DNA of 32,000 bases from Candidatus Electronema aureum. Lineage in GTDB: Bacteria > Desulfobacterota > Desulfobulbia > Desulfobulbales > Desulfobulbaceae. Position numbers and translations under genes: made by a program. The notes under the pieces were generated by a model. The model searched no databases. It was not told the DNA's origin and saw only the letters and a program-made list of their open reading frames with translations. Where the stretch lies: positions 1-32,000 of the forward strand of contig NQJD01000002.1 of assembly GCA_004284765.1 (NCBI GenBank), given 5' to 3'. Below are positions 13,712 to 32,000 of this stretch, in pieces (the stretch's first letter is position 1; every line of letters begins with the position of its first letter).

Positions 13712-15064
13712 TCACACCCTGTCCGCTCGCCTAATCACATCGCACAGCTCTAAGGCGAGGTCTGAAATCTCCTTCTCATCTTCCCCCTCAGCCATCACCC
13801 GGATCACCGGCTCAGTGCCAGAGGCGCGTACCAGTATCCTCCCTCGGCTACCCAATCTTTCTTCTGCCGCTTTTAATGCCTCACTGAAACCCCTGATCTG
13901 CTCCGGCGCAATCCGGCTGGACAGGCGGACATTCTCCAACACTTGCGGATAGGCAGTCATGATTTTGGCCAGCTCTGAGAGCGGTTTTTTCCGTTTAATC
14001 ATGATCGCCAGAAGCTGAAGCGCAGCCAAGGTGCCGTCGCCGGTGGTGTTGTGGTCAAGGAAGATGAGGTGGCCAGACTGCTCGCCACCGAAGTTGCAGC
14101 CTTTGGCTCGCATCGCCTCGACCACGTAGCGGTCGCCGACACTGGTGCGGAGCAGCTTTGCGCCTAAGTCACTCAAGGCTTTTTCCAAGCCTATATTGCT
14201 CATCACCGTGGCGACTGCGGTCTTTTTTTTCAGCTTGCCTCGACTGATCAAATCAGCGGCGCAGATGGCCATGATGTGGTCACCGTCAACGATTGCGCCT
14301 TTTTCATCGCAAACGATCAGCCGGTCCGCATCGCCGTCCAAAGCAAGGCCGATGTTCGCGCCGAGCTGCCGCACCTTTTCCGCCATCAGCTCTGGGTGGA
14401 GCGCGCCGCAGTCTCGGTTGATATTTTTGCCGTCCGGGTCCACACCGAGACAAGTGACTTTTGCGCCCAGCTCGGCAAAAACAAAGGGTGCAACCTTATA
14501 AGCCGCACCGTGGGCACAGTCTAAGACGATGTGGAAATCGTCGAGCGTGTACTTGTTCGGGAAGGTGTTCTTGAGGAAGACGATGTAGCGGCCGCAGGCA
14601 TCATCAATCCGGGCTGCCTTGCCCACCTCGTCGGCCACCGGACGCAGTGCCGCCATTTTTTGCGAAAAAATCAGGTCTTCAATGTCTAATTCGACCTCAT
14701 CCGGCAGCTTGAAGCCGTCGCGCGAGAATATCTTGATCCCGTTGTCTTGAAAAGGGTTGTGTGAGGCAGAAATGACCACACCCGCATCCGCCCGCATCGA
14801 GGTGGTGATGAAGGCGATACCCGGCGTGGGCAACGGGCCGAGCAACTGCACATCCACGCCCATTGAGCAAACTCCAGCGGCCAACGCATTCTCGAGCATA
14901 TAGCCAGAAAGCCGAGTGTCCTTGCCGATGACAATGTGATGCCCTTTGGTCTTTTTCTTGACGATGAACGCGATAGCCCTGCCAATCTGCATGGCAATTT
15001 CGGTGGTCATCGGATAGATATTGGCAGTGCCACGCACGCCGTCAGTGCCGAAAAGCTGGCGCAT
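13712..15064 (-). CDS. glmM: Phosphoglucosamine mutase
   Basis: 450 aa. N-terminus FGTDGVRG, phosphoserine loop [20 protein letters not shown]-type metal loop (LDGDADRL). Conserved position after cdaA-cdaR. Confidence 0.95.
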
Positions 15065-15082
15065 AATTTTTTAGAGGCTGAG

Positions 15083-16123
15083 TTATTTTTTCTTCCGGTT
15101 TTCTTTCTTCGTTTCCTGTTTCAGTTTGGCCGGTTCCGGTTTGTTATCTGGCAGCAGGATTTCCACCTCCTGCGGGGTGTAAGACTTGATTACCGTTGGC
15201 TCATGGCCAGGCATGGTTGCCGCAAAAACTTCCACTGGCGCAGTGCGTGGTAGTTCGCCGCTGCCTACATAAACTGAGGCCCGGAAAAGCATAGGCTGTG
15301 CCAAGGTGTCTGAAAGCAGGCTTTCTGGGATGCTGGCAAAAACTGAGATAACATCGGGCTTCAGCACGACTGGTCCCATAGCATCGCGAGCACTGACCGG
15401 GATGCTATGGATAATTTTTTCGACAAATTTTTCTTTGACCGTGATTTTGACTGCTACTGTGGTTTCGCCGATCAAACTCATCAGTTCAGGCGAGAGAGCA
15501 AGATGCACGGGAACCGTAGCAGAACGGGTCATTCCTTCCAAGGGAATGACGTACGTCTTCAGGGCTTGCTGCCGCTCTAACAAAGTTTTCGGCCCCGATA
15601 CCAAAATGTTATCGGGGTTGAGACTGATTTCTTGTAGCGTATAGCCGGGTGCAACTTTCCCTTCGGTTGCTGCCGTAATCGGTATCTGTTTTTGCACCAG
15701 CTCGTCAATCGACAGACTGATACTGGCAGGCTGCATCCGTACCACAGAAACGCCGCCAGGCAGCGGAAGCTGGAGCGTATCTGTGTTCAGCACCACCGTA
15801 TCCGGTACCGCTCCAACTAAATCGATGGGCAGCGAGAGTGTTCGGCTGCGCATTTCTTGCATAATGCTGCGCGGGCCGCTCAGGGTCACATTTACCTCTT
15901 TCTGGTACTGGTTGTAAATGACCAAATTTTTAGGCAAATTGAGAAACTCAATCGGCACGGTGAGTGTCATAGCCATTTGGTCTGCACCAACCACTAAAAA
16001 CCAAATCAGAATACCGAGGGAAAGCGAAACAAAAAGCAGCAAAAATTCTTTGCAGCGTTTTTTGCTGTTTTGCAGAAAGTGGATTGCCGACGGGTTCACT
16101 AAGGACGTTTTTTTTTGATCCAT
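15083..16123 (-). CDS. cdaR: YbbR-domain protein, CdaA regulator
   Basis: N-terminal TM anchor followed by repeated YbbR-like modules (e.g. LTVPIEFLNLPKNLVIYNQYQKEVNVTLSGP). Located between cdaA and glmM. The ORF opens at GTG 16132; the first ATG is at 16123. Confidence 0.75.
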   Translation of the reverse strand: MDQKKTSLVNPSAIHFLQNSKKRCKEFLLLFVSLSLGILIWFLVVGADQMAMTLTVPIEFLNLPKNLVIYNQYQKEVNVTLSGPRSIMQEMRSRTLSLPIDLVGAVPDTVVLNTDTLQLPLPGGVSVVRMQPASISLSIDELVQKQIPITAATEGKVAPGYTLQEISLNPDNILVSGPKTLLERQQALKTYVIPLEGMTRSATVPVHLALSPELMSLIGETTVAVKITVKEKFVEKIIHSIPVSARDAMGPVVLKPDVISVFASIPESLLSDTLAQPMLFRASVYVGSGELPRTAPVEVFAATMPGHEPTVIKSYTPQEVEILLPDNKPEPAKLKQETKKENRKKK

Positions 16124-16914
16124 CGTTGCCACAGGGGAGCTTTTTTTTCCCGCACTAAAAAAATATCTTTGAGAACAGTCTCTAATTTTTCTTCATCCCG
16201 CATTGGCGTGATGACTCCGCCTCGGACCACTGAGATTTCTTGGGTTTCTTCGGACACCGCCAAAATCACCGCGTCAGTCATTTCAGAAAGCCCCAGTGCT
16301 GCTCGATGCCGCATCCCGTAGCGCTTGTCGATGCTGAGATTTTTCGATAAAGGCAGTACACAGGCGGCAGAATGAATTTTTCCTTTCTTGATTACTACCG
16401 CGCCGTCGTGTAACGGCGATTTAGTCAGGAATATTGCCACTAACAGCTCTTGAAGCAGCTTGCTGTCGATAATGAAGCCAGTTTCTACATATTCCTGCAA
16501 GCCAGTTTCACGCTCAATGATAATCAACGCACCGATACGCCGCCGTGACAAACTTACTACAGCGGAGATGATCTGGGTGAGGTCATCAGCAGCGATATTG
16601 CTACTTTTTAAAAAGGGCGTTTTGCCCATTTCGGTTAAAGCGCGACGGATGTCATCTTGAAAAATGATCACCGTGATCAGCAAAATTGAACTAAGCAAAG
16701 AACGCAGCAACAACTGGAGTGCCAGCAAGTCCAGAGCAGTCGAAAGAAAATAAAGCAGCGCGATGACCAAAGCACCGGCCAGCATTTGCACCGCCCTCGT
16801 TCCCCGAATCAGAATGATAATACGGTAAACGATGAACGAGACGATCAGAATATCAGCGATATCCTGCCATCTAAAGGAGCTGGGGAAGCTGAACGTGCTG
16901 AACAAATCGGGCAT
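16099..16914 (-). CDS. cdaA: Diadenylate cyclase (c-di-AMP synthase), membrane-bound
   Basis: Three N-terminal TM helices with IRGTRAVQML. DAC domain motifs RRIGALIIIER, PLHDGAVVI, GMRHRAALGLSE.TDA..LAVSEET. ATG 16914 gives a length and N-terminus matching characterised CdaA; the ORF extends to 16977. Confidence 0.9.
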   Translation of the reverse strand: MPDLFSTFSFPSSFRWQDIADILIVSFIVYRIIILIRGTRAVQMLAGALVIALLYFLSTALDLLALQLLLRSLLSSILLITVIIFQDDIRRALTEMGKTPFLKSSNIAADDLTQIISAVVSLSRRRIGALIIIERETGLQEYVETGFIIDSKLLQELLVAIFLTKSPLHDGAVVIKKGKIHSAACVLPLSKNLSIDKRYGMRHRAALGLSEMTDAVILAVSEETQEISVVRGGVITPMRDEEKLETVLKDIFLVREKKAPLWQRWIKKKRP

Positions 16915-17103
16915 GAATATAAAGGCAGCAGAAGCAAAGCAAGCTGGAACATTTTTTGCAGGGTGAAAAATTGGCATTTTTTTTATAACATGTTACCCTG
17001 ATTCTGAACAGAACAAAGCGGAGTAACCTACAATTTTTTTCAGCGCAGGATACACAATAGGGCTGCTCAGAGTTCTGCAAAAATTACGTCTGCTCATTTT
17101 AAT

Positions 17104-22067: not shown

Positions 22068-22096
22068 TTGAACAATTTTATTCATTTTGGTACAAT
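22068..22096 (+). promoter_or_regulatory. Sigma70 promoter with extended -10 for the toxin-antitoxin pair
   Basis: TTGAAC (22068..22073), 17-nt spacer ending in TGG, TACAAT (22091..22096), i.e. a TGnTACAAT extended -10, 39 nt upstream of the antitoxin ATG. Confidence 0.55.
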
Positions 22097-22134
22097 CAGC
22101 TCTATTGAAGATACTTCCACCGAAGGAGGATGTT

Positions 22135-22371
22135 ATGATTGTTACTATTTCCAAGGCAAAAATCGATCTTTCAAAGTTAGTGAAGAGGGCCTGTCATGGT
22201 GAAAGAATCATTATTACCAAAAACAATCTACCGCTTGCCGAGATAGTGCCGCACAATGTCCAAGGAAAGAGAATGCTTGGGACTTTTGCAGGGAAAGTTG
22301 CGTTGCCGGATAATATAATGGATGAGGATGAAGAGGTAAACGAAATGTTTTATGGCAAAGCTGAGAAATAA
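22135..22371 (+). CDS. Type II antitoxin, Phd/YefM family
   Basis: ATG 22135 preceded by GGAGGA. MIVTISKAKIDLSKLVKRACHGERIIITKNNLPLAEIVP is a typical Phd/YefM N-domain, followed by an acidic C-terminal tail. Located immediately upstream of a PIN toxin. Confidence 0.8.
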   Translation: MIVTISKAKIDLSKLVKRACHGERIIITKNNLPLAEIVPHNVQGKRMLGTFAGKVALPDNIMDEDEEVNEMFYGKAEK

Positions 22372-22389
22372 GCGAGGTGTTCGCGTTGA

Positions 22390-22761
22390 ATGAAGATACT
22401 TATTGATACGCATATTTTTTTGTGGGCGATAGCCGATCCAGCCAGAATCAGTGCTGATAAGAGGAAAAGACTGGAACAACTTACAAATACTGTCTATGTG
22501 AGTTCAATCACTATTGCTGAGATTATGATCAAGTCATCCATTCAGAAATTGAAGATTGAATATGATCCTCTTGATGCAGCCAAGCAGAGCGGTTTTCAAT
22601 TCCTCAATTTCCGTGCTGAAGATGCCCTGTTGCTTCTCAATTTACCCTTTCATCATAAAGACCCATTTGACAGGATGCTGATAGTTCAAGCCATTGCTAA
22701 CGACTGTTATTTGATGACAGACGATAGCAAGTTTCGTGCGTATGAATGCCGTCTTCTATAG
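22390..22761 (+). CDS. vapC: Type II toxin, PIN-domain ribonuclease (VapC family)
   Basis: MKILIDTHIFLW (first acidic residue), SSITIAEI, the DPFDRMLIVQA and LMTDD motifs of the PIN/COG3744-type toxin. 18 nt after the antitoxin stop. Confidence 0.85.
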   Translation: MKILIDTHIFLWAIADPARISADKRKRLEQLTNTVYVSSITIAEIMIKSSIQKLKIEYDPLDAAKQSGFQFLNFRAEDALLLLNLPFHHKDPFDRMLIVQAIANDCYLMTDDSKFRAYECRLL

Positions 22762-23946
22762 CTTAACCCGCCCGTTGCGCTTCATCACCCGCTTAAACCC
22801 ATCCCCAGCCTTCCTGATTCGCTCCTCGTCCACGCAGAAAGCCAATCGGATATGTCCCGGTCTACCAAACCCCTGTCCAGGCACAGCCAATATCTTTTCC
22901 TCCAGCAGCAGTTGGCAGAATTCCACCTCATCAATCGGGGTTTTAGGGAAGAGATAAAAGGCTCCCTTGGGCCGGACGTACTCAAAGCCCGCCTCGTCGA
23001 GAATTTTGCAGAAGATATCCCTCCGCCGTGCATAGATAGATACATCTGCGCTCACATCCTGAAGCTGCGCTACCGCCCGCTGCATCAACGCTGGAGCATT
23101 GACAAAACCAAGGATGCGGTTGGCTAACGTCATAGCATTAAGCAAGGCAGTCTTATCCGGCATATCAGGATGCACGGCTAAATAACCGATGCGCTCGCCG
23201 GGCAAAGATAAGTCCTTAGAATACGATGAAACCACGATGGTATTGACGCTGGCAGCCATAACCGAAGGCACTTCCAATCCGTCATAAACAATCTTGCGGT
23301 ACGGCTCATCAGCGATGATATACAGCGTGCGGCCAAACCGTTCCCCCGCGTGGTCTAACAGCTTGCCCAGCGCGACTAACGATTCTGCGCTATACACTTG
23401 GCCAGTGGGATTGTTGGGACTATTCATCAACACCACCTTGGTCTTCTCGCTCAAAGCTGCCTCGATAGCCGCCACATCGAGCTTGAATTCCTCGTCCGCT
23501 GGCACAATCTTGCTCACTCCGCCGTGGTTATCAACGTAAAAGGTATATTCGACAAAGAACGGACTGATCAGGATAACCTCATCGCCGGGATCAAGCAGGG
23601 CTTTCATCGCTACATTGAGCGCACCAGCAGCTCCGCAGGTCATGAGAACATCGCTTGCGCCGATGCCCGCGCCTTGTTCTCGTGCCAAACGAGCCGCTAC
23701 CGCCTCTCGCACGTGAGGATAACCGCTGTTCGGCATGTAGGCGTGCATTCCCGGTGCAGTTGATTGCGCCAGTTCAGTCAGCACGTGCAGAAATTGAGGC
23801 GGAGGCGGTACATCCGGGTTGCCAAGGCTGAAATCAAAGACATTCTCTGCACCGAACTGAGCCTTCATTCGGGTACCTTCCTCAAACATCTTACGAATCC
23901 AAGAGGATTTCTCGGCAAAGGCCAACATTTTCTGAGAAGCTGTCAT
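22756..23946 (-). CDS. Pyridoxal-phosphate-dependent aminotransferase, class I/II (Asp/Ala aminotransferase-like)
   Basis: 396 aa with FSLGNPD, NSPNNPTG, the PLP-lysine motif SYSKDLSLPGERIGY, and the C-terminal IRLAF. Confidence 0.9.
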   Translation of the reverse strand: MTASQKMLAFAEKSSWIRKMFEEGTRMKAQFGAENVFDFSLGNPDVPPPPQFLHVLTELAQSTAPGMHAYMPNSGYPHVREAVAARLAREQGAGIGASDVLMTCGAAGALNVAMKALLDPGDEVILISPFFVEYTFYVDNHGGVSKIVPADEEFKLDVAAIEAALSEKTKVVLMNSPNNPTGQVYSAESLVALGKLLDHAGERFGRTLYIIADEPYRKIVYDGLEVPSVMAASVNTIVVSSYSKDLSLPGERIGYLAVHPDMPDKTALLNAMTLANRILGFVNAPALMQRAVAQLQDVSADVSIYARRRDIFCKILDEAGFEYVRPKGAFYLFPKTPIDEVEFCQLLLEEKILAVPGQGFGRPGHIRLAFCVDEERIRKAGDGFKRVMKRNGRVKL

Positions 23947-24134
23947 GGTGTGCTTGTCGTTTATAATGGTTTTTCATTGAACGGAGAGTGCCGACTATGC
24001 TGCTGGGCTGGTGCATAAAGATTCTCCTCCTCTCAAGCTGGGCTTTGCCGCATCAAGCAGACAATCTGACCGCCAACAGCTCTGTTCTTCGCAGCCTGAA
24101 ACTATAGCTGAAGCAGCATAAAGTGAACTTGAAT

Positions 24135-24205
24135 GTCATTCCGAGCAAAGCGAGGAATCTCCTCTTCGTCCTTGGCGTGAGATTTCTCGCTCCGCTCGAA
24201 ATGAC
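24135..24205. repeat. REP-like imperfect inverted repeat
   Basis: GTCATTCCGAGCAAAGCGAGGAATCTC (24135..24161) and GAGATTTCTCGCTCCGCTCGAAATGAC (24179..24205) are reverse complements with 4 mismatches, separated by 17 nt. Intergenic location. Confidence 0.75.
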
Positions 24206-24251
24206 AGATACGACGGTTCAAAGTATGTTGCTCTGGCTATACTCTCTATCA

Positions 24252-24384
24252 GAGACAGTATAGTGTCTCTTGCGGAGTCACTACGGTGTCTCGGCTGGAG
24301 ACACTATGGTCACTCCACTGGAGACACTACGGTATCTCCCAAGGAGACACTATGGTGTCTCGGTTGGAGTCACTATGGTGTCTC
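24252..24384. repeat. Six tandem 23-bp units, each an 18-bp hairpin palindrome (consensus GAGACACTATGGTGTCTC) plus a variable 5-nt spacer
   Basis: Units start at 24252, 24275, 24298, 24321, 24344 and 24367, an exact 23-bp phase. Stems are GAGACAC/GTGTCTC with loop TAYG. The 5-nt sequences following units 1-6 are TTGCG, GGCTG, CACTG, CCAAG, GGTTG, CGCTT. The array ends 19 nt from the stop codon of the MmeI-like gene. Confidence 0.9.
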
Positions 24385-24403
24385 CGCTTTGACACGGCGT
24401 ACC

Positions 24404-27187
24404 CTATCCATCAGCCTTCTTCCTGCGGCCCGGCTTCTTCCCTTTTGCCGCAAGAGGCAGCAGGCTGGCGGTGTATTTCTGGTACAGATCAAAGAGGAAG
24501 GCCACCCGCTCGGCCTCGGATTTGAAGTCACGCCGACCGTAGGTAGCATCCACCGCCTTGTCTAACGCGCGATGTGCCTTGAGCAGCACGGGCGGCATGG
24601 TCAGCGGGTCGTAGAGATCAGCGAGCGAGGAGTCCGGGAACTGAGCGCGGGCATTGAGCACGGTCTGCGCCGCAACTTCCACCGCCTGCTGCTGCTTATC
24701 GCTTAGGCTTGGCGGCCACGGGAACGTATTGTAGGTGAATTTTACGGAATATCGTATATCGTTTTTAAGCCGTCCAGAGGTGATATTCACCCAAGCCTTG
24801 TGCATGATGCTGGCGAGTACACCTAAACTGTAAAGACTAGCAGATGGAACGAGCTGCAAATCATTGGCAGCCACAACCTCGCCTGACAAATAGCCAATTG
24901 GCAGGTACTGTCGGTTCTCGGAAGAGGTACGGGGAATAGCGAGATAGTCACCATCCGGCTGGCGGTTTTCCGTAAATAATGTTGGAATGTTCGCTTTCTC
25001 TTTGGTGGCTTCCTTTGGACTCTGTTGCCGCATACAGCGAACTGCCTTAACTCTCTCAAGAACCAGCGGCATTCTCTGTAATTCGTCGGGCGGACAATCA
25101 ACTAGCCAGAGGCAATAGCGAAGATCGTTATGAATGAATCCTTCAGCTCCGAGATAGGGTCTTATCCACTTTGCAGCAAGTGGTTCAGCTGAAAGAAACT
25201 CGTCTTTCTCTTCTGGTGTGAAGATTAGGTTGCCACCATCTGCCGGAATGCTGCCGTTGACAATCTCCTGAACTAGACAGATTGGCTTCATCCTCCCATA
25301 AACAATAATATCAGGCCCGTCAATCAGATAAGGACTGATGTTCTTTGCTTGAATGGAATGCGCCTCGCCGCGAATGTCCTCATACTCGAACAGCAGCTTC
25401 GGCTGCACCTCCTCGCAGGCAAAGCCGACAATCACGCAATGCACGGCGGCCTTGCCCCGCGCCTCGTTATTCCATTGAAAGGTGCGGTGGGCGAAGAATA
25501 TACGGCAGCCCTGTGAGAGCAGCCAATTCCACAGCACACTGACCTGCTCGCCTTGACAGATGGAGTTCGTGGAGACAAAGGCGCAGCGGATGGCGGTGTT
25601 CCGCAGCATCTGCGCCGCCTTCACATACCAGGCCGCAACAAAGTCGAGCAGCCCTGCATTCTTGATGCCAGCGAAGACGGCATTCACGTCGGCCCGCTGC
25701 GCTTCGCTCATGAACTTTGCGCCCACAAACGGCGGATTGCCCATGATGTAACTCAGTCGCTCCACCGGAACTACCTCGTTCCAGTCAAGGCGGAGAGCAT
25801 TGCCGCAGATGATGTTCGGACTGGTTTTCAGCGGAATGCGGGCGAAGTAGAGACCGAACTCCTCGGAAACCTGCTGGTTCATCTGGTGATCGGTCAGCCA
25901 CAGAGCCACCTGCGCAATCTGCGCGGGGAACTCCTCCAGCTCAATGCCGAAGAACTGATCAACATTCAGGCGGATGAGACCGCGCACATCCAAGCTCTGC
26001 TGCACCTTCTCAACCTCGTTCCGCACGCTGGTGTGGAGGACGCGGAGAATGTCCAATTCGAGCAGACGCAGCTCACGATAGGCAATAACGAGAAAGTTGC
26101 CGCAGCCGCAGGCCGGATCAAGGAAGCTCAGGCTGCGCAGCTGCTGATGGAACTCCTCCAGCTTCTTGCGATTGCCCTTCACCTTGCCGAACTCCTCGCG
26201 CAGGCGGTCAAGAAAGAGCGGCCTGATCAGCTTGAGGATGTTCTGCTCGCTGGTGTAGTGCGCGCCGAGGTTGCGGCGGGCCTGCTTGTCCATGATTGAC
26301 TGGAACAGCGAGCCGAAGATAGCAGGCGAGATGCGCGACCAATCTAAACCGCAGCAGTCGAGCAGACTCTGGCGCATGACCGTGTCAAAGGAAGCGGGTG
26401 AAAGAACTTCCTCGAACAGCCTACCGTTGACAAAGGGAAAGGCGGCAAGCTGCTCGTCAAGGTTCTTTAGGCGGTGGTCTTCCGGGCTGTTGAGGATGTG
26501 GAAGAAGACCGAGAGCTGCGGGCCAAGATCGCTGCCGTCCTCGCCTGTGCGCTGCTCGATGAAGTCCTGAAACTGCTGCTGTTGAAAGATGCCGGTGTCC
26601 TCGGCAAAGAGACAGAAGAGCAGGCGGACAAGATAGACCTCCAGCGCATGGCCGACGTAGCCGGTCTCCTTCATCAGGTCGTGCAGACGGCCCATGCGCT
26701 CCGCCGCCTTGATGTTCACCGGGTCCTGCTCGCGCACGGCGTGGGTCTGGTAGCCCGCGATAAAGCCGAAGAGTCGCAGGTTCTTGTGCAAGTCCTTCAG
26801 CGCAAAGTCGTGGCGGCTGTCTTCCTCCAGATCATAGAGCCGGAAGCGGGCGAAGTCGGAAACAAGGATGCAGCGCGGCAGCTCGCGCTCCTTCAGGCCG
26901 GGGAAATAGCCAAGTGCCTGCTGATGGGCGCGGTCAAGGTCTTTGCCGCGTGACTTGTGTTCAATCAGCAGCATCCCTTTCCAGAGCAGATCAATGTAGC
27001 CGTCGCGGCCATCCAGCTTATTCACCCGCTGCTCAAAGCTGGCCACCCTGCGTCGTTCAATGCCGAAGACGTGAAAGAACGCATTCCAGAAGGTCTTGGC
27101 TTCTGCATCTTCAGAAGCCTCGTCCGCCCATTCGCGGGAGAAGGCGAGAGCGCGGGATTTGATTTCGTTCCAGCTTAAAGGGGGCAT
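24404..27187 (-). CDS. MmeI-family Type IIL restriction-modification enzyme (fused endonuclease, N6-adenine methyltransferase and target-recognition domain)
   Basis: The N-terminus is collinear with MmeI as recalled (LSWNEIK..A..FS..W, FGI.RRRVASFE, IDLLWKGMLLIEHKSRGKDL with D66-x9-E76-x-K78, LPR..LVSDF.RFRL, FGFIAGYQT). SAM motif FLDPACGCGNFL (26090..26125). Catalytic NPPF in IMGNPPFVGAKF (25727..25738). The 927-aa length is close to that of MmeI. Confidence 0.9.
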   Translation of the reverse strand: MPPLSWNEIKSRALAFSREWADEASEDAEAKTFWNAFFHVFGIERRRVASFEQRVNKLDGRDGYIDLLWKGMLLIEHKSRGKDLDRAHQQALGYFPGLKERELPRCILVSDFARFRLYDLEEDSRHDFALKDLHKNLRLFGFIAGYQTHAVREQDPVNIKAAERMGRLHDLMKETGYVGHALEVYLVRLLFCLFAEDTGIFQQQQFQDFIEQRTGEDGSDLGPQLSVFFHILNSPEDHRLKNLDEQLAAFPFVNGRLFEEVLSPASFDTVMRQSLLDCCGLDWSRISPAIFGSLFQSIMDKQARRNLGAHYTSEQNILKLIRPLFLDRLREEFGKVKGNRKKLEEFHQQLRSLSFLDPACGCGNFLVIAYRELRLLELDILRVLHTSVRNEVEKVQQSLDVRGLIRLNVDQFFGIELEEFPAQIAQVALWLTDHQMNQQVSEEFGLYFARIPLKTSPNIICGNALRLDWNEVVPVERLSYIMGNPPFVGAKFMSEAQRADVNAVFAGIKNAGLLDFVAAWYVKAAQMLRNTAIRCAFVSTNSICQGEQVSVLWNWLLSQGCRIFFAHRTFQWNNEARGKAAVHCVIVGFACEEVQPKLLFEYEDIRGEAHSIQAKNISPYLIDGPDIIVYGRMKPICLVQEIVNGSIPADGGNLIFTPEEKDEFLSAEPLAAKWIRPYLGAEGFIHNDLRYCLWLVDCPPDELQRMPLVLERVKAVRCMRQQSPKEATKEKANIPTLFTENRQPDGDYLAIPRTSSENRQYLPIGYLSGEVVAANDLQLVPSASLYSLGVLASIMHKAWVNITSGRLKNDIRYSVKFTYNTFPWPPSLSDKQQQAVEVAAQTVLNARAQFPDSSLADLYDPLTMPPVLLKAHRALDKAVDATYGRRDFKSEAERVAFLFDLYQKYTASLLPLAAKGKKPGRRKKADG

Positions 27188-27205
27188 GGGGCTTTTATTA
27201 TTTGT

Positions 27206-30200
27206 TTATGCCTGCTGCGCATCTTCTTCCGACAAATACGCTCTCAGCCAAGGCCAAAGCTGGTTTTCCTGCACTTTGCAACCCACCAGATTTTCCTGAA
27301 GTTTAAAGTGGTTCTTCTCATTTTTACGGGTTGCCTTCATTATAGAGTCCCGGCAGGCTCGGTAATGCTCAAACCGTTCATAAGGTACCTCCGGCGAGTA
27401 AATCATTTCTTCTCCCCAGAGCCAGAACCTTCGGTCAACGCATCGTAAGAACAGGCGAAATGCCGCCCATGCCTGAAGCGTTTCTTCGTGGGTGATAAAA
27501 CGTTCAAACCAGTGATGCGCCCATTGATTGCGTTCATGGATTATCTTTGCTTTTCTGGCGCAATCGTGCAGCCAAGACGGTTTCTTTTCCGCTATCCAAG
27601 CGTCCAGCCGTTCACCCGCTGAATGATCATCCATGAAGCCAAGCAGGAAAAGGCCCTTGGCGTTATCCAAAGCAAAATCAGATTGGAGATATTCGGTGAT
27701 GGTTCCTTCAAGCCATTCATTCCTGTCATGCTTTTGCGCAAGGAAGGCTATTTCAAAGAGTTCATCGTCGTAAAGGGCATTATCCAGCAGAGATTTTCTG
27801 AGATTGCAAACGGTCTCTGAATTTCCTGCCCGAAAAAGGCCGAATAACAGGTTAAGTATTTCAGTTGTATAATCAATCAATCGGAGCCTGTTTTCACGAT
27901 GAAGCCGCCGAAAAAGCCGTTCTCCCTGTTTCGGTTGATGCTCCAATAGGATTTCGCATAAGGCTTCATAAAATCCCCGGCAACGAACAAGCATTTCGGT
28001 ATCTTGTTTCAAGGCGGTTATCAGCCATTGGTTGACATATTCAGGACAGGCAGCAACAACTTCAGCAAGTGCATCTATACGGAATTTTTCTATGAACAGA
28101 TTGTTTCCTGTTTTTCTGAGAGAAACGGCGAAGTTATTCACCTTGTCTTTTACTTGTTGATTTTTGCTGGTTTGCAACTCAAAGTTCATCGAATCCTGAA
28201 AGCTGGTTTCTTTTTCGTCATCTTTCCCAGAACTTCGGTAAGAGCTTCCGCCCCAAATGGATGTCGGTGAAACAATTTTGAACCCAAGGTTGTCATTTGT
28301 ATGCAAAGAGTAATCGCATTCATGCTCCGGTTCAGGAAGATTGATTTTGACTGCAACCTGATCTGCCTCTATTGGGATTTCAAACGGTTGCATTGCAACG
28401 CTGTGCCAAAGTTGATGAAGAGTCTTCCCGTATGCAGCGATTTCATCGTTCTTGCAGTCTCGTTTTTTGACAGCATACCCCAGCAGTTGAAGAGAAACAC
28501 GCTCCAATATTTCGGAAAAAGGCAAGTCCAGACCATGCTCGGCCAATAATCTGCTGCCCCAATACCGTTCAAAATCGCTGCCAGCCTTAGCTGAACCCCA
28601 ATTGCTCTTCAAGATTGACTGAATTCCTTGCTTATTTTTGGTACAAGTAAAAAGTTCCAGTGCATGGTGGATACGGGCAAATCTGTTATCAATTTCCGAA
28701 AATTCAGGAAGCAACTCCATTATCTGCTGGTCAATCTCAAGGAGAGAAGGAAGGAGATTGATAAGAAATTTAAGCCGTTCTGATGGCATTTGTATGTTCG
28801 CAAGTTTTTCAGTTACACAAGCTAATTTTGAAGAATCATCAATGTTTTTGACAAAAGGAAACCTTCCTCTGCACCATGTGTAATCATCTGAACAGCGTTC
28901 TTTTATGAGATCAAGTTGCTGATTCAAGGCTTTTCCTCTTGACACACACGCAAAAAGGATTGTTTCCGTAAAGAACGCATCATTGTGCCCGGAAATCTCG
29001 GATAGACTGCTTCGCCATGCCTCTTCCACGGCTGAACGCGCCTTTTCACTCAGAATCATAATATGCTCATAGATGAACATCGACAGCAACCAGCGCGACG
29101 ATTGCTCTCTTTCCGGGAAAAGACAGGCAAGCTCATTAATGATTTCAGAAAATCGTTCCGGGCAATAAGAGCATAATGCAGGTTCAATATTGCGAATGTC
29201 TATATCTTCTCCAGTTTGCCCGTTCTCATTTGATTTAAAATATTTCAAGTCAATCTCTTTTCCTGTCCGCATAAACAGCAGCTTGAATTTTTTCGGTACT
29301 GTACATGATGGATCTACAGCAACATCCCTTAGTTTAGAAACAATGGCATCGATATTAGCAGGAGAGCTTTCGAGAAAGCCTAAACATTCCAAATAATATT
29401 CACGAGTCCAGTTGTATAATAAATTTATACAAGGATACTCTTTGTAAAGCTGGTACATCAAATTTTCCTCTTTGTATTCAGAAGGGATTTTTTTGTCCAT
29501 CTGCCAAGATGTTTCCGTTCCTAAGGCTCGCAGGAGAAAGACAGCAGTTCTCTGCGCAACACATTGAGAATTTTTTAAAAGCTCTTCTATTTCTATCAAG
29601 ATGTTCTTTTCAATATCATCCTTCGCTGTACGCAATACCCAAGAAAGCTGCTCGTAAAAATCAGGGTAGCCCATGACCATCCCAGCGACAACACCCGTTA
29701 TCATAGCCCGAATATATGGAGCGCGGGGCTGCTGCGAAATAATAGCGAGAGCAAAACGGGATAGCCTCAGAAGCCCTTCGTCTTCTGTCCGGGTCAGGCG
29801 AAAACCGAACAGCTCGCACTGATCTGCTGAAAAATCATGCCCCAGTGCCCGCCGTACATCCCGCCTGCCTTTTTCGAGTTTGCTTTGATCGTCACGGGCA
29901 TGTCTGCCTTTATGCCCGTCATGATGGACAAATCCCATCCAGCGTTCAAACGTAGGTATCAGGATTTGCTGGACAGTTCCCTGTCCGCCGAATTTCAAAA
30001 AACCTGACATGAAGGCATTTTGCAACCCCATGTTATTTGCATTTTCCGACCATTCCTGCTCCATCATCCGCAGATAGATTTCAGGTCGAACCGGGAGATA
30101 GGATGTAATGCGCCACCAATCATCTTCTTTTATATTCCTCCCGGAAACCCACGCATTGAACAACGCCAGATGAATTCCTTCCGGCCATTCCTTTTTACCA

Positions 30201-31924
30201 AGCGCATGATAAAGAGCCATAGCGCAGATAGAAACTTTAATGTCCATATCCGGCTGCGGCTCTTGGAAATGCGCTATTACTTCAGCAAGATTATTTTGCG
30301 CTTCCAGCGCATCTGCCACCTCATAAGCAAGCAGCAATCCCAGACCAAGAATCAGATAATCTCGGTTGATTGTCCATCCGCTACCATGTTTTTGAAGAAC
30401 ACGGCCCGTACTTAACTCGGTCAGCAGAGAGTTGCTGTCACCATATCCAGATAGCTCAGTCTGCAATTCTCCCCGGAAAATTCTTTTGCTTTGCTGTATC
30501 CGATTGCTTAGATTGCAGATCAATTCCTGAAATGCTTCGTGGCTCAAGGAATTACCCAGCTTGCGCTCTTGCTTATCCCGCCAGTCTTCGTAAATCAGAC
30601 GCTCTCTGGTGATTTCGCCTTCGCTGTCCATGCGCTCCCACAGGCGTACAGTCAGATCAAAGTAGCGGGGAATACGAAGCAGATCGATGAGGTTTTTATC
30701 AAAATGATCAGGAGTCAGATTCTTGACAGCAAGTGCCGACTTTAATTCCGCATCGTTGTATGGGCCTAATGTGAAGACAGCGGCTCCTACAGAAGACAGA
30801 TGTTCATCCCAGAATTTTTTGCGGCAAGTCATCAGCACTGCTGTACGATTGCACCACGGTTCCACAGCAAATTTTGCCAAAAGCTGCCGCCATTCCATAT
30901 CAGGACGCTCATTCAAGCCGTCCATGACAAGGAGAAAAAGCGGCGTGTCGCCAGCCGGACGTTCCAGCCAACGCTGCAACCGTTTCTGCCAGTATCCTTC
31001 GTATGGTTCTTTTAACTGCTTCGCAAGAATTTCAGGCAAGAGAATGTCAAATTCTTTTAAATCAGCCATTCCGGAGGGAAGGAAGATGACAGGAAAACCA
31101 TCTGACAGCTTGCCGTAGAGCCAATCTACAACCGCCCAGGTTTTGCCGTCGCCTTCTTCGCCAAGAACAACAAAAAACTTGTGCTGCTCATGCCAATTGG
31201 CAAACCAGTTGTCCAGAGCTTCCTGCGCTGCTTTGCGGGGAATGAAAAACTCTCCTTCAGCCCGCACCGCCAAGTTCTGTGAAAAGGCCGCTTTTGACTC
31301 ATCCTTATTCCGCAACCGTCCGCACAGCCAAGCATTTTGCTCTTCCAGCCAGTGATCATAACCGATATTCTGCGCGGCCAGCTCCTGCTTGAGTTTTTCA
31401 GACTTGTCCGAAACCTCTTTATTTTCTTTTAGTGATTGTAGATAGCTGGAAAATTCATCAGCTTCTTGTTTGTCAGCGAAATATTTTTGCAGATGCCTGA
31501 CGGTGATCTCCGGTGCATAAGCACATAATGCGGCAAGAAAGCTCTTCTCTTCCCCTTGAGCATCTATAGAAAAATAAGCAATCCCAGAGTCCTGACTGAA
31601 TTGCCGAAGTGGATTATGATGCTGGTCACTCAACCGCTTGGTGGTGACAACCATCCAAAGATCAGGCTTTAAACTGTTCTGGGCGGCAGCGGTGAATTTA
31701 GCTAACAGCTCATCACTTTTGAGCTTTGTTGCATCATCGTATCTTTTGCATTCCGCCATCAAGAAATTGCTGGCCATGTCCCGGCCTCCCTGATCGCCTG
31801 AACGCGAAAGATGAAAACGCTGCCCGGTCAGCCGCTCAAGCAGCTTGGCGACAAGTCCTTCAAAGCCATCCTGTCCGGCGGCGGGCTGTTTCCAGATGAT
31901 TTGCAGAAATTGTTCAAAATTCAT
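27206..31924 (-). CDS. Giant STAND-type defence protein: Mrr-like PD-(D/E)xK nuclease + NACHT-like P-loop NTPase + ~1100-aa unassigned helical C-terminal region
   Basis: Nuclease: FEGLVAKLLERLTG...SGDQGGRDMASNFLMAECKRY (D..ExK, 31745..31780). Walker A: VVLGEEGDGKTW (31139..31162). Walker B: PLFLLVMDGLNE (D at 30920..30922). Start ambiguous: ATG 31924 (MNFEQFLQ, begins right at the nuclease domain) or ATG 31987 (the ORF-track start, adding 21 odd residues); neither has a clear SD. The upstream region is cut by the window end. Confidence 0.8.
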   Translation of the reverse strand: MNFEQFLQIIWKQPAAGQDGFEGLVAKLLERLTGQRFHLSRSGDQGGRDMASNFLMAECKRYDDATKLKSDELLAKFTAAAQNSLKPDLWMVVTTKRLSDQHHNPLRQFSQDSGIAYFSIDAQGEEKSFLAALCAYAPEITVRHLQKYFADKQEADEFSSYLQSLKENKEVSDKSEKLKQELAAQNIGYDHWLEEQNAWLCGRLRNKDESKAAFSQNLAVRAEGEFFIPRKAAQEALDNWFANWHEQHKFFVVLGEEGDGKTWAVVDWLYGKLSDGFPVIFLPSGMADLKEFDILLPEILAKQLKEPYEGYWQKRLQRWLERPAGDTPLFLLVMDGLNERPDMEWRQLLAKFAVEPWCNRTAVLMTCRKKFWDEHLSSVGAAVFTLGPYNDAELKSALAVKNLTPDHFDKNLIDLLRIPRYFDLTVRLWERMDSEGEITRERLIYEDWRDKQERKLGNSLSHEAFQELICNLSNRIQQSKRIFRGELQTELSGYGDSNSLLTELSTGRVLQKHGSGWTINRDYLILGLGLLLAYEVADALEAQNNLAEVIAHFQEPQPDMDIKVSICAMALYHALGKKEWPEGIHLALFNAWVSGRNIKEDDWWRITSYLPVRPEIYLRMMEQEWSENANNMGLQNAFMSGFLKFGGQGTVQQILIPTFERWMGFVHHDGHKGRHARDDQSKLEKGRRDVRRALGHDFSADQCELFGFRLTRTEDEGLLRLSRFALAIISQQPRAPYIRAMITGVVAGMVMGYPDFYEQLSWVLRTAKDDIEKNILIEIEELLKNSQCVAQRTAVFLLRALGTETSWQMDKKIPSEYKEENLMYQLYKEYPCINLLYNWTREYYLECLGFLESSPANIDAIVSKLRDVAVDPSCTVPKKFKLLFMRTGKEIDLKYFKSNENGQTGEDIDIRNIEPALCSYCPERFSEIINELACLFPEREQSSRWLLSMFIYEHIMILSEKARSAVEEAWRSSLSEISGHNDAFFTETILFACVSRGKALNQQLDLIKERCSDDYTWCRGRFPFVKNIDDSSKLACVTEKLANIQMPSERLKFLINLLPSLLEIDQQIMELLPEFSEIDNRFARIHHALELFTCTKNKQGIQSILKSNWGSAKAGSDFERYWGSRLLAEHGLDLPFSEILERVSLQLLGYAVKKRDCKNDEIAAYGKTLHQLWHSVAMQPFEIPIEADQVAVKINLPEPEHECDYSLHTNDNLGFKIVSPTSIWGGSSYRSSGKDDEKETSFQDSMNFELQTSKNQQVKDKVNNFAVSLRKTGNNLFIEKFRIDALAEVVAACPEYVNQWLITALKQDTEMLVRCRGFYEALCEILLEHQPKQGERLFRRLHRENRLRLIDYTTEILNLLFGLFRAGNSETVCNLRKSLLDNALYDDELFEIAFLAQKHDRNEWLEGTITEYLQSDFALDNAKGLFLLGFMDDHSAGERLDAWIAEKKPSWLHDCARKAKIIHERNQWAHHWFERFITHEETLQAWAAFRLFLRCVDRRFWLWGEEMIYSPEVPYERFEHYRACRDSIMKATRKNEKNHFKLQENLVGCKVQENQLWPWLRAYLSEEDAQQA

Positions 31925-32000
31925 AGCTGGTGAGCGAATAGATGATTCCTGACAGCAAGAGAGACTGACGGCAAGCCATCCTATCATGTGGCGGCAGGCA

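Follow-up and report, generated by a model that had tools for sequence, protein, structure and literature searches.

The window analysed here is a stretch of 32,000 nucleotides (nt) from the freshwater cable bacterium Candidatus Electronema aureum (Desulfobulbaceae; contig NQJD01000002.1, positions 1 to 32,000), in which two large defence genes stand side by side on the minus strand, 18 nt apart. The upstream gene (27206..31924 when translated from M22) encodes a protein of 1572 amino acids (aa) that combines an Mrr-like nuclease, a NACHT-type STAND NTPase and a HEAT-like solenoid, referred to below as STAND. The downstream gene (24404..27187) encodes a 927-aa MmeI-family Type IIL/IIG restriction-modification (RM) enzyme, referred to as MmeI. 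The original prediction, made from the letters of the window, had described the two as a candidate coupled defence module. The positions of both open reading frames (ORFs), their shared orientation and the gap at 27188..27205 were confirmed, and so were the gene identities, that of MmeI by its Pfam and PADLOC matches and that of STAND through its homologues and through AlphaFold2 (AF2) models searched with Foldseek. The existence of a coupled new system is not supported by the comparisons described below. Judging from the sequences, we put at roughly 80% the probability that each gene is an autonomous anti-phage system and that the pair is stacked in a cable-bacterium defence island of fast turnover. 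Both genes are complete and have intact catalytic motifs, and neither needs the other to persist.

Results

The STAND gene

The longest form of the STAND ORF spans 27206..31987 on the minus strand (1593 aa). Translation probably starts at M22 (31924), giving 1572 aa, because every homologue has its N-terminus at this position, with the sequence MNFEQF or MNFEKF, and because a database protein 100% identical to STAND (P0001 of Ca. Electronema aureum, labelled 'NACHT domain-containing' in UniRef) is 1572 aa long. Searched alone against Pfam, PADLOC and NCBIfam, the window protein gave no matches, and its domain identity was therefore drawn from homologues and from structure. Its family is large: a word-indexed search returned 567 matches, and an exhaustive search with aa 1-1200 returned 593 cluster representatives (clustered at 50% identity) at E ≤ 1e-30. 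The alignment of 23 diverse members, down to 31% identity, is conserved along the whole length.

Three regions can be delimited, all on the minus strand. The first is the N-terminal Mrr-like PD-(D/E)xK nuclease domain (aa ~1-150, 31475..31924), whose residues D49, E58 and K60 (PD-ExK) are invariant in the 23 homologues; Pfam Mrr_cat matches 14 of these (best E 8e-5), the window protein itself falling below the threshold. Some relatives have a TIR_2, caspase or trypsin domain in place of this N-terminus, and such swapped effectors are a hallmark of antiviral STANDs. The second is the NACHT-type STAND NTPase (aa ~245-420, 30665..31192). Its Walker A motif, G255-E-E-G-x-G-K261 (GEEGDGKT at aa 255-262 in STAND itself), and its Walker B motif, D335-G-x-N338 (DGLNE at aa 335-339), are likewise invariant, with E339 kept in at least 90% of the homologues. 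Pfam NACHT (PF05729) matches 17 of the 23 (best E 3.4e-8) and gives no match to the window protein at E ≤ 0.01, while a precomputed PF05729 assignment is carried by many database homologues. The third region is a C-terminal alpha-solenoid of ~1030 aa (27209..30289), presumed to be the sensor.

The AF2 model of aa 1-545 has a predicted local distance difference test score (pLDDT) of 81, and its top Foldseek match is portal-bound EcAvs4 (8dgf; E 1e-10, 563 aligned columns), in an alignment that begins at the N-terminus of the model. Further matches are CED-4, Dark, Apaf-1, the plant NLR RPP1 and NLRP14. The model of the C-terminal 1052 aa (pLDDT 79) is an all-helical solenoid, for which Foldseek found generic HEAT/karyopherin matches only, with template modelling (TM) scores of 0.15-0.25. 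At the level of sequence, a hidden Markov model (HMM) of the family searched against all PDB sequences returned chance-level P-loop matches only (best E 0.29) and no Avs4; none of the PADLOC Avs models matches the window protein, and one of the 23 homologues matches Avs2, at 3e-5. Compared with the NACHT clade, the P-loop agrees, as a Walker A of the form GxxxxGK[ST] in what is predicted to be an Apaf-1/CED-4/NLR-like fold, and Walker B deviates by one position, DGLNE standing where the clade signature is D[GAS]hDE. The reading of STAND as an Mrr-like restriction endonuclease (REase), a NACHT-type STAND module and a long repeat sensor in a single chain is supported.

The MmeI gene

MmeI reads as a complete, full-length Type IIL/IIG enzyme of its family. 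Five Pfam domains follow one another along its 927 aa, with near-complete model coverage and E-values from 1e-24 to 1e-96: MmeI_N (aa 12-174), MmeI_hel (aa 180-258), MmeI_Mtase (aa 335-600), MmeI_TRD (aa 623-826) and MmeI_C (aa 829-909). The catalytic residues named in the original prediction are present in the translation, the nuclease motif D66/E76-H-K78 and the NPPF of motif IV (GNPPFVG), as is motif I for S-adenosylmethionine (SAM) binding, FLDPACGCGNF. The protein is identical to a Ca. Electronema aureum database entry named 'YeeA' methylase.

The methyltransferase region shows weak PADLOC and NCBIfam similarity to PglX, DrmMI and mad2. On that ground MmeI could be taken for a PglX-type methyltransferase belonging to a multi-gene system, BREX-like or other, of which STAND would be a new component. 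We find this hardly credible, as the stand-alone Type IIG/MmeI model is the best by far: PADLOC REase_MTase_IIG scores 1200 bits across aa 4-907, DrmMI and mad2 far lower and PglX 25 bits, and the NCBIfam BREX PglX models reach 25 and 16 bits, where the cut-offs are 900 and 500. The five MmeI domains are all there, the N-terminal nuclease included, and no BREX, DISARM or MADS partner was found among the neighbours in the 32-kb window and 1.7 kb upstream.

The target-recognition domain (TRD) is a swapped segment (24710..25321, minus strand) by its composition and by broken nucleotide homology. Its GC content is 0.49 compared with 0.58-0.60 in the remainder of the gene, and nucleotide homology with other Electronema MmeI copies ends at ~25310 and restarts at ~24810, the TRD being the sole part that does not align. 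The odd GC content and the non-alignment are consistent with TRD swapping to change specificity.

Distribution of the pairing in the STAND family

The check proposed for the coupling was whether the two genes are conserved neighbours in unrelated genomes. We gathered 91 loci, corresponding to ~70 non-redundant STAND loci, and scored the presence of MmeI by tblastn with the window MmeI as query. MmeI adjoins STAND only in the window's own sub-clade. Clustering at 55% identity gave 41 STAND clusters, 31 of them assessable, and adjacency occurs in 1 of the 31. Forty-five loci counted as distant: their STAND is below 55% identity, its 3' end is complete and 300 nt or more of sequence follows it. 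Not one of these 45 carries an MmeI homologue within 10 kb, in 587 kb of flanks altogether. The 119 ORFs within 4 kb downstream match 143 Pfam families, with a maximum of three ORFs per family, the commonest being CHAT (3 ORFs), N6_N4_Mtase (3) and MmeI_N (2). One locus (L045) has a Type III RM system and a UvrD helicase upstream of STAND, another (L027) a PglXI-like methyltransferase and NsnAB, and other neighbours in the family include BrxL, CHAT, TPR-S and AlbA_2, content typical of defence islands.

The same survey bears on the original prediction's second proposal, that methylation by MmeI marks host DNA so that the Mrr-like nuclease of STAND spares it, as if one RM system were divided between two genes. 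A methyltransferase juxtaposed with a nuclease-bearing protein is what speaks for it, and nothing else does. More than 45 loci encode the same nuclease-STAND without an adjacent methyltransferase of the MmeI kind, STAND ORFs are intact where MmeI has been deleted, and MmeI has a nuclease domain of its own, with D66/E76/K78 intact, so that it is a complete RM enzyme by itself. The Mrr-type domains of Avs proteins are kept inactive by the NTPase switch, not by methylation, which also counts against this explanation. We give it next to no chance.

Persistence and loss of the pairing in cable bacteria

The cable-bacteria clade comprises nine non-redundant loci with STAND 55-100% identical to that of the window; the STAND-MmeI junction is present in six, and MmeI is absent in three. 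MmeI is intact in the window (STAND 100%, 18-nt gap), in L043 (GCA_052784985.1; STAND 61%, 4-nt gap) and in L088 (STAND 67%, 13-nt overlap), and lies at a contig edge in L091 (STAND 66%, 14-nt gap). It is cut to 236 aa and followed by a second AlbA_2-type gene in L002 (STAND 66%, 18-nt gap), and in L001 (Electronema sp. KV; STAND 88%) its nt 1-65 are fused to its last ~160 nt. The loci without MmeI are Electrothrix scaldis (STAND 75%; a hydantoinase gene next), L041 (STAND 75%; Uma2 on the opposite strand) and L090 (Electrothrix sp. AR3; STAND 55%; DUF218 next). The 2.5-kb internal MmeI deletion of L001 lies beside an intact 1600-aa STAND ORF, and the 236-aa MmeI stump of L002 beside an intact 1484-aa one. 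L001 keeps an intact MmeI elsewhere, upstream of STAND and behind ABC-3C, with an opposite-strand AlbA_2 gene in between.

The junction is homologous at the nucleotide level in the window, L001, L002, L088 and L091, with alignments that cross it. The adjacency thus has one origin and has been inherited within cable bacteria, and this single origin deprives it of statistical weight as an arrangement conserved in unrelated genomes.

L043 and L088 both have a YEATS gene in the upstream flank, 99.5% identical at the protein level, with 97.5% nucleotide identity over the flank and the 5' end of STAND. The NTPase-distal and sensor part of STAND (L043 3439-6498, L088 1471-4545) has diverged most within the gene, being 78% identical in nucleotides compared with 92-97% in the flanks, a mosaic divergence that suggests diversifying selection or recombination in the STAND sensor. 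The MmeI TRDs differ between the two loci as well, so the specificity region of each gene diversifies in place. A direct repeat of ~100 nt flanks STAND (L043 2820-2911 and 7262-7363; L088 798-889; compare L085 7960-8000); in it the 3' end of an ABC-3C DUF2326 gene is joined to the first 60 nt of MmeI. Judging from this repeat, it looks as if STAND had inserted at a former DUF2326/MmeI junction. Tandem STAND duplication was considered as the source of the upstream repeat and rejected, as the piece is a DUF2326 3' end joined to an MmeI 5' end.

MmeI cassettes away from STAND

Homologues of MmeI with 65-83% identity are abundant across many unrelated taxa, and none of the three closest outside the pair is accompanied by STAND. 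One lies behind a cytochrome-c-domain gene (L087; 83% identity overall, 94% outside the TRD), and the other two start 6 nt behind their upstream neighbour, an ABC-3C DUF2326 gene for L085 (80% and 91%) and an amino oxidase gene for L086 (Electronema sp. VV; 77% and 87%). In a neighbour-joining tree of the non-TRD positions the window MmeI nests among these STAND-unlinked copies, with the L043 and L088 copies as the sister group. Tight spacing characterises the MmeI cassettes of these genomes, not the STAND-MmeI relationship; MmeI copies sit equally close behind unrelated genes.

We note that the ABC-3C-type system (CTD10, MC6 and CTD10+DUF2326; PADLOC PDC-M68B) is a three-gene system placed directly upstream of MmeI, with a gap of 6-15 nt, in two Electronema-type genomes (L001 3060-5925 and L085 5132-7994).

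Short remnants of MmeI ends, the first ~60-115 nt and/or the last ~110-160 nt, are scattered around defence genes (L001 14728-14964, L043 2820-2911, L088 842-889, L089 303-356, L085 3465-3578, L086 11563-11673, L091 2-61 and L038 47-314). One example is an internal MmeI deletion with breakpoints at codons ~21 and ~866, and in another, the last 111 nt of MmeI occur as a copy behind a Gp49/HTH toxin-antitoxin insertion. The pattern points to the conserved MmeI termini as breakpoints for recombination, through which defence cassettes would be shuffled in cable bacteria.

These distributions bear most directly on the coupling as originally conceived, in which STAND, like PrrC, would monitor or back up MmeI and fire upon inhibited restriction or escape through methylation. 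The co-oriented genes with a gap free of promoter and terminator, the adjacency kept in six of nine cable-bacteria loci and a second sub-clade in which another methyltransferase follows STAND by 14 nt all point in its favour. Such a guard is nevertheless unlikely in our view. The association is confined to one narrow clade and one evolutionary origin, in L001 and L002 an intact STAND ORF stands next to a deleted or truncated MmeI, three relatives have no MmeI at all, the same MmeI lineage is found behind unrelated genes, and the STAND family has the self-contained effector-NTPase-sensor plan of the single-gene Avs/bNACHT systems.

The junction and the sequence downstream of MmeI

The 18-nt intergenic spacer (27188..27205, minus strand) reads ACAAATAATAAAAGCCCC. 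It holds no obvious Shine-Dalgarno sequence, promoter-like site, terminator-like site or hairpin, and for promoter and hairpin this agrees with the original prediction; the nearest minus-strand promoter-like match to the junction is at 28854, and terminator-like matches in 23500-32000 are not enriched (8 observed, 9.1 expected). The homologous spacers measure 18 nt in L002 and 14 nt in L091, the genes overlap by 13 nt in L088, and in L043 the junction has been rebuilt with 4 nt. Homology among MmeI copies begins 3-5 nt ahead of the ATG, so the MmeI genes bring along no promoter that is conserved, and read-through from the gene upstream, here STAND, probably drives the expression of each copy. 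Co-transcription of the pair from a STAND promoter is thus probable, given the 18-nt gap and an MmeI that brings no promoter with it; it would reflect how MmeI cassettes insert rather than functional dependence. The break in composition that had been listed as a counter-argument to coupling is real: GC content is 0.457 in STAND and 0.566 in MmeI, and the GC content at third codon positions (GC3) is 0.458 compared with 0.703.

Directly after the MmeI stop codon lies an array of six 23-nt palindromic units (24252..24384, no strand assigned), which serves as context here. The units are tandem copies of an imperfect 7-bp palindrome, GAGACAC-CATA-GTGTCTC, with 10 pattern matches where 0 are expected. 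The array described in the original prediction is real in this sense; its role as a terminator had been an assumption, and we rejected it as an intrinsic terminator, as the units have no T-run and were not called by the terminator scan. One unit with flanking homology also follows the upstream MmeI copy of Electronema sp. KV (L001 8726-8743), and the palindromic array thus travels with some MmeI copies.

Surroundings of the pair

A contig of the same organism (L038) reaches 1.7 kb past the end of the window. Upstream of STAND it carries a divergent gene with AlbA_2 (Schlafen-like) and HATPase_c_4 domains (L038 294-1658, minus strand), 61 nt away. STAND is thus the first gene of any operon, and the further co-oriented partners that had been considered possible beyond the window have no place there. 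This AlbA_2 gene is 91-95% identical in L001, L002 and L085 and appears to be a conserved anchor beside which STAND, ABC-3C and MmeI cassettes come and go. Past it lies a frameshifted MmeI-like methyltransferase fragment (L038 2-314).

Elsewhere the window carries chromosomal housekeeping genes, namely glmM, ybbR/cdaR, cdaA, mutY, an M24 peptidase, a periplasmic binding protein and an aminotransferase, together with a Phd/PIN toxin-antitoxin pair. This pair (22087-22761, plus strand) consists of a Phd/YefM-type antitoxin (22087-22371) followed by a PIN-domain toxin (22390-22761); it has a low GC content (0.40) and sits between the aminotransferase and SAM methyltransferase genes. The cdaA, ybbR (cdaR) and glmM genes form a cluster at 13712-16977 (minus strand) in this genome of deltaproteobacterial type; the arrangement is that of the cyclic di-AMP cyclase operon, best known from Firmicutes. 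A tRNA scan and an Rfam search at gathering thresholds over the whole window found no tRNA and no Rfam family, so that no island boundary is anchored by a tRNA and no RNA element is recognised. A megablast search with 24000-32000 as query had zero matches in complete E. coli genomes and among PLSDB plasmids, which therefore offer no annotated context.

Discussion

We propose that STAND and MmeI provide layered yet independent defence. STAND would be a single-protein antiviral STAND of the Avs/bNACHT kind: its HEAT-like solenoid might bind a phage-derived protein, which would free the NACHT-type NTPase to bind ATP and oligomerise, and oligomerisation would then gather the N-terminal Mrr-like PD-(D/E)xK domains, leading perhaps to indiscriminate DNA cutting and abortive infection. 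MmeI, for its part, would restrict unmethylated incoming DNA. Their adjacency would have arisen once, in an ancestor of the Electronema/Electrothrix-type Desulfobulbaceae, and since then have been inherited, eroded and rebuilt. Simple stacking in a defence island, which the original prediction had itself offered as the alternative, is better supported than coupling.

Several observations weigh against this interpretation. The adjacency persists in the six clade loci down to 61% STAND identity, and it is found in two flank contexts, with either AlbA_2 or YEATS upstream. The spacing stays tight throughout (18, 18, 14 and 4 nt, or a 13-nt overlap), as co-transcription and translational coupling would allow. 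In L043, the last ~10 STAND codons and the spacer have given way to sequence that matches the ABC-3C DUF2326 gene at its 3' end; a copy of MmeI seems to have been brought in anew at the same place out of an ABC-3C context, and this could reflect selection for MmeI at that position. A separate sub-clade (L027, L056 and L063), whose STANDs are 71-77% identical to one another and 31% to that of the window, has another methyltransferase, PglXI-like and of 926 aa, 14 nt downstream of STAND. In L027 (14664-19737) it is followed by NsnA/NsnB homologues, a further member is at L056 5120-5639, and in L063 (8027-8191) it has been reduced to a 55-aa remnant. This is a second, independent lineage-restricted STAND-to-methyltransferase adjacency, and it too decays. 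Finally, 1/31 and 0/45 are raw counts that carry no matched defence-island background rate.

Taken together, these points might be read as signs that STAND and MmeI of cable bacteria are a co-transcribed, co-inherited two-layer unit with epistasis, and that the STAND family tends to recruit large DNA methyltransferase or RM genes directly behind it, MmeI in one sub-clade and a PglXI-like enzyme in another; STAND may, for example, fire when an anti-restriction factor blocks MmeI or when methylated phage bypasses it. We consider this doubtful, as the points favouring linkage are equally expected from co-inheritance and from recombination among paralogous cassettes in a defence hotspot.

A true coupling would give the first STAND/NLR-type sensor linked to a restriction enzyme, a PrrC-style guard on an NLR scaffold. 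As an ordinary defence island, the locus is a useful negative: it shows that a joint mechanism cannot be read from defence genes being closely spaced and co-oriented. This caution applies most to genes of the MmeI type, which, in these genomes, insert only a few bases behind any gene that lies upstream. A more modest value lies in the signs that MmeI ends act as recombination breakpoints and in the Mrr-NACHT-solenoid family itself, ~600 clusters at 50% identity, of which PADLOC v2 and Pfam miss the window protein.

Comparison with known systems

The literature that we searched holds no description of a STAND-MmeI pairing, in agreement with the original prediction, which had not recognised it as a described system. 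The model for its coupling was PrrC in the EcoprrI Type Ic RM locus, and the likeness is that a latent suicide nuclease stands beside a co-oriented restriction-modification enzyme. For PrrC, the association with the hsd genes is a defining, conserved feature. Unlike it, the STAND-MmeI association is limited to one narrow clade, without adjacency across unrelated genomes, and has been lost repeatedly. STAND also has its own sensor of ~1000 aa, with which it would need no partner to detect infection.

MmeI agrees with the prototype of its family in having a PD-ExK nuclease, a helical spacer, a gamma-class N6-adenine methyltransferase with NPPF, a TRD and a C-terminal domain, all five in one chain of ~920 aa, and it is typical of that family; it differs in that its TRD is a compositionally distinct, swapped segment. 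MmeI-type enzymes methylate one strand of an asymmetric site and cut unmodified DNA ~20 nt away.

For STAND, the closest solved structure to the N-terminal 545 aa is EcAvs4 (8dgf). Both are single-gene proteins of similar size, about 1540-1580 aa, with an N-terminal Mrr-like nuclease, a central STAND NTPase and a long helical C-terminal sensor. Unlike EcAvs4, STAND has NACHT-type motifs in its NTPase and a sensor that matches generic HEAT/karyopherin folds and not the Avs4 sensor. The two have no detectable sequence similarity, and by both the PADLOC models and the HMM search against PDB sequences STAND falls outside Avs4.

The other close relatives in architecture are proteins of the bNACHT25 type. 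bNACHT25 joins an Mrr-like REase to NACHT, with D[GAS]hDE as the NACHT Walker B signature (Kibby et al., bioRxiv 10.1101/2022.07.19.500537), and at least 90 defence-associated STAND families have been distinguished, most of them untested (2026 preprint, PMC12803255). STAND departs from this type in its Walker B, where N338 is invariant, and in lying itself under the Pfam NACHT threshold that its homologues reach. It shares with the type an N-terminal Mrr-like REase fused to a NACHT module, C-terminal domains of the repeat or 'antigen-receptor-type' kind, and effectors that are swapped among relatives (TIR, peptidases). Both bNACHT and Avs proteins have been described as single-gene actors (bioRxiv 10.1101/2022.07.19.500537; PMC12803255), and STAND is a further member of this Avs/bNACHT kind, whose bNACHT25-type proteins act alone.

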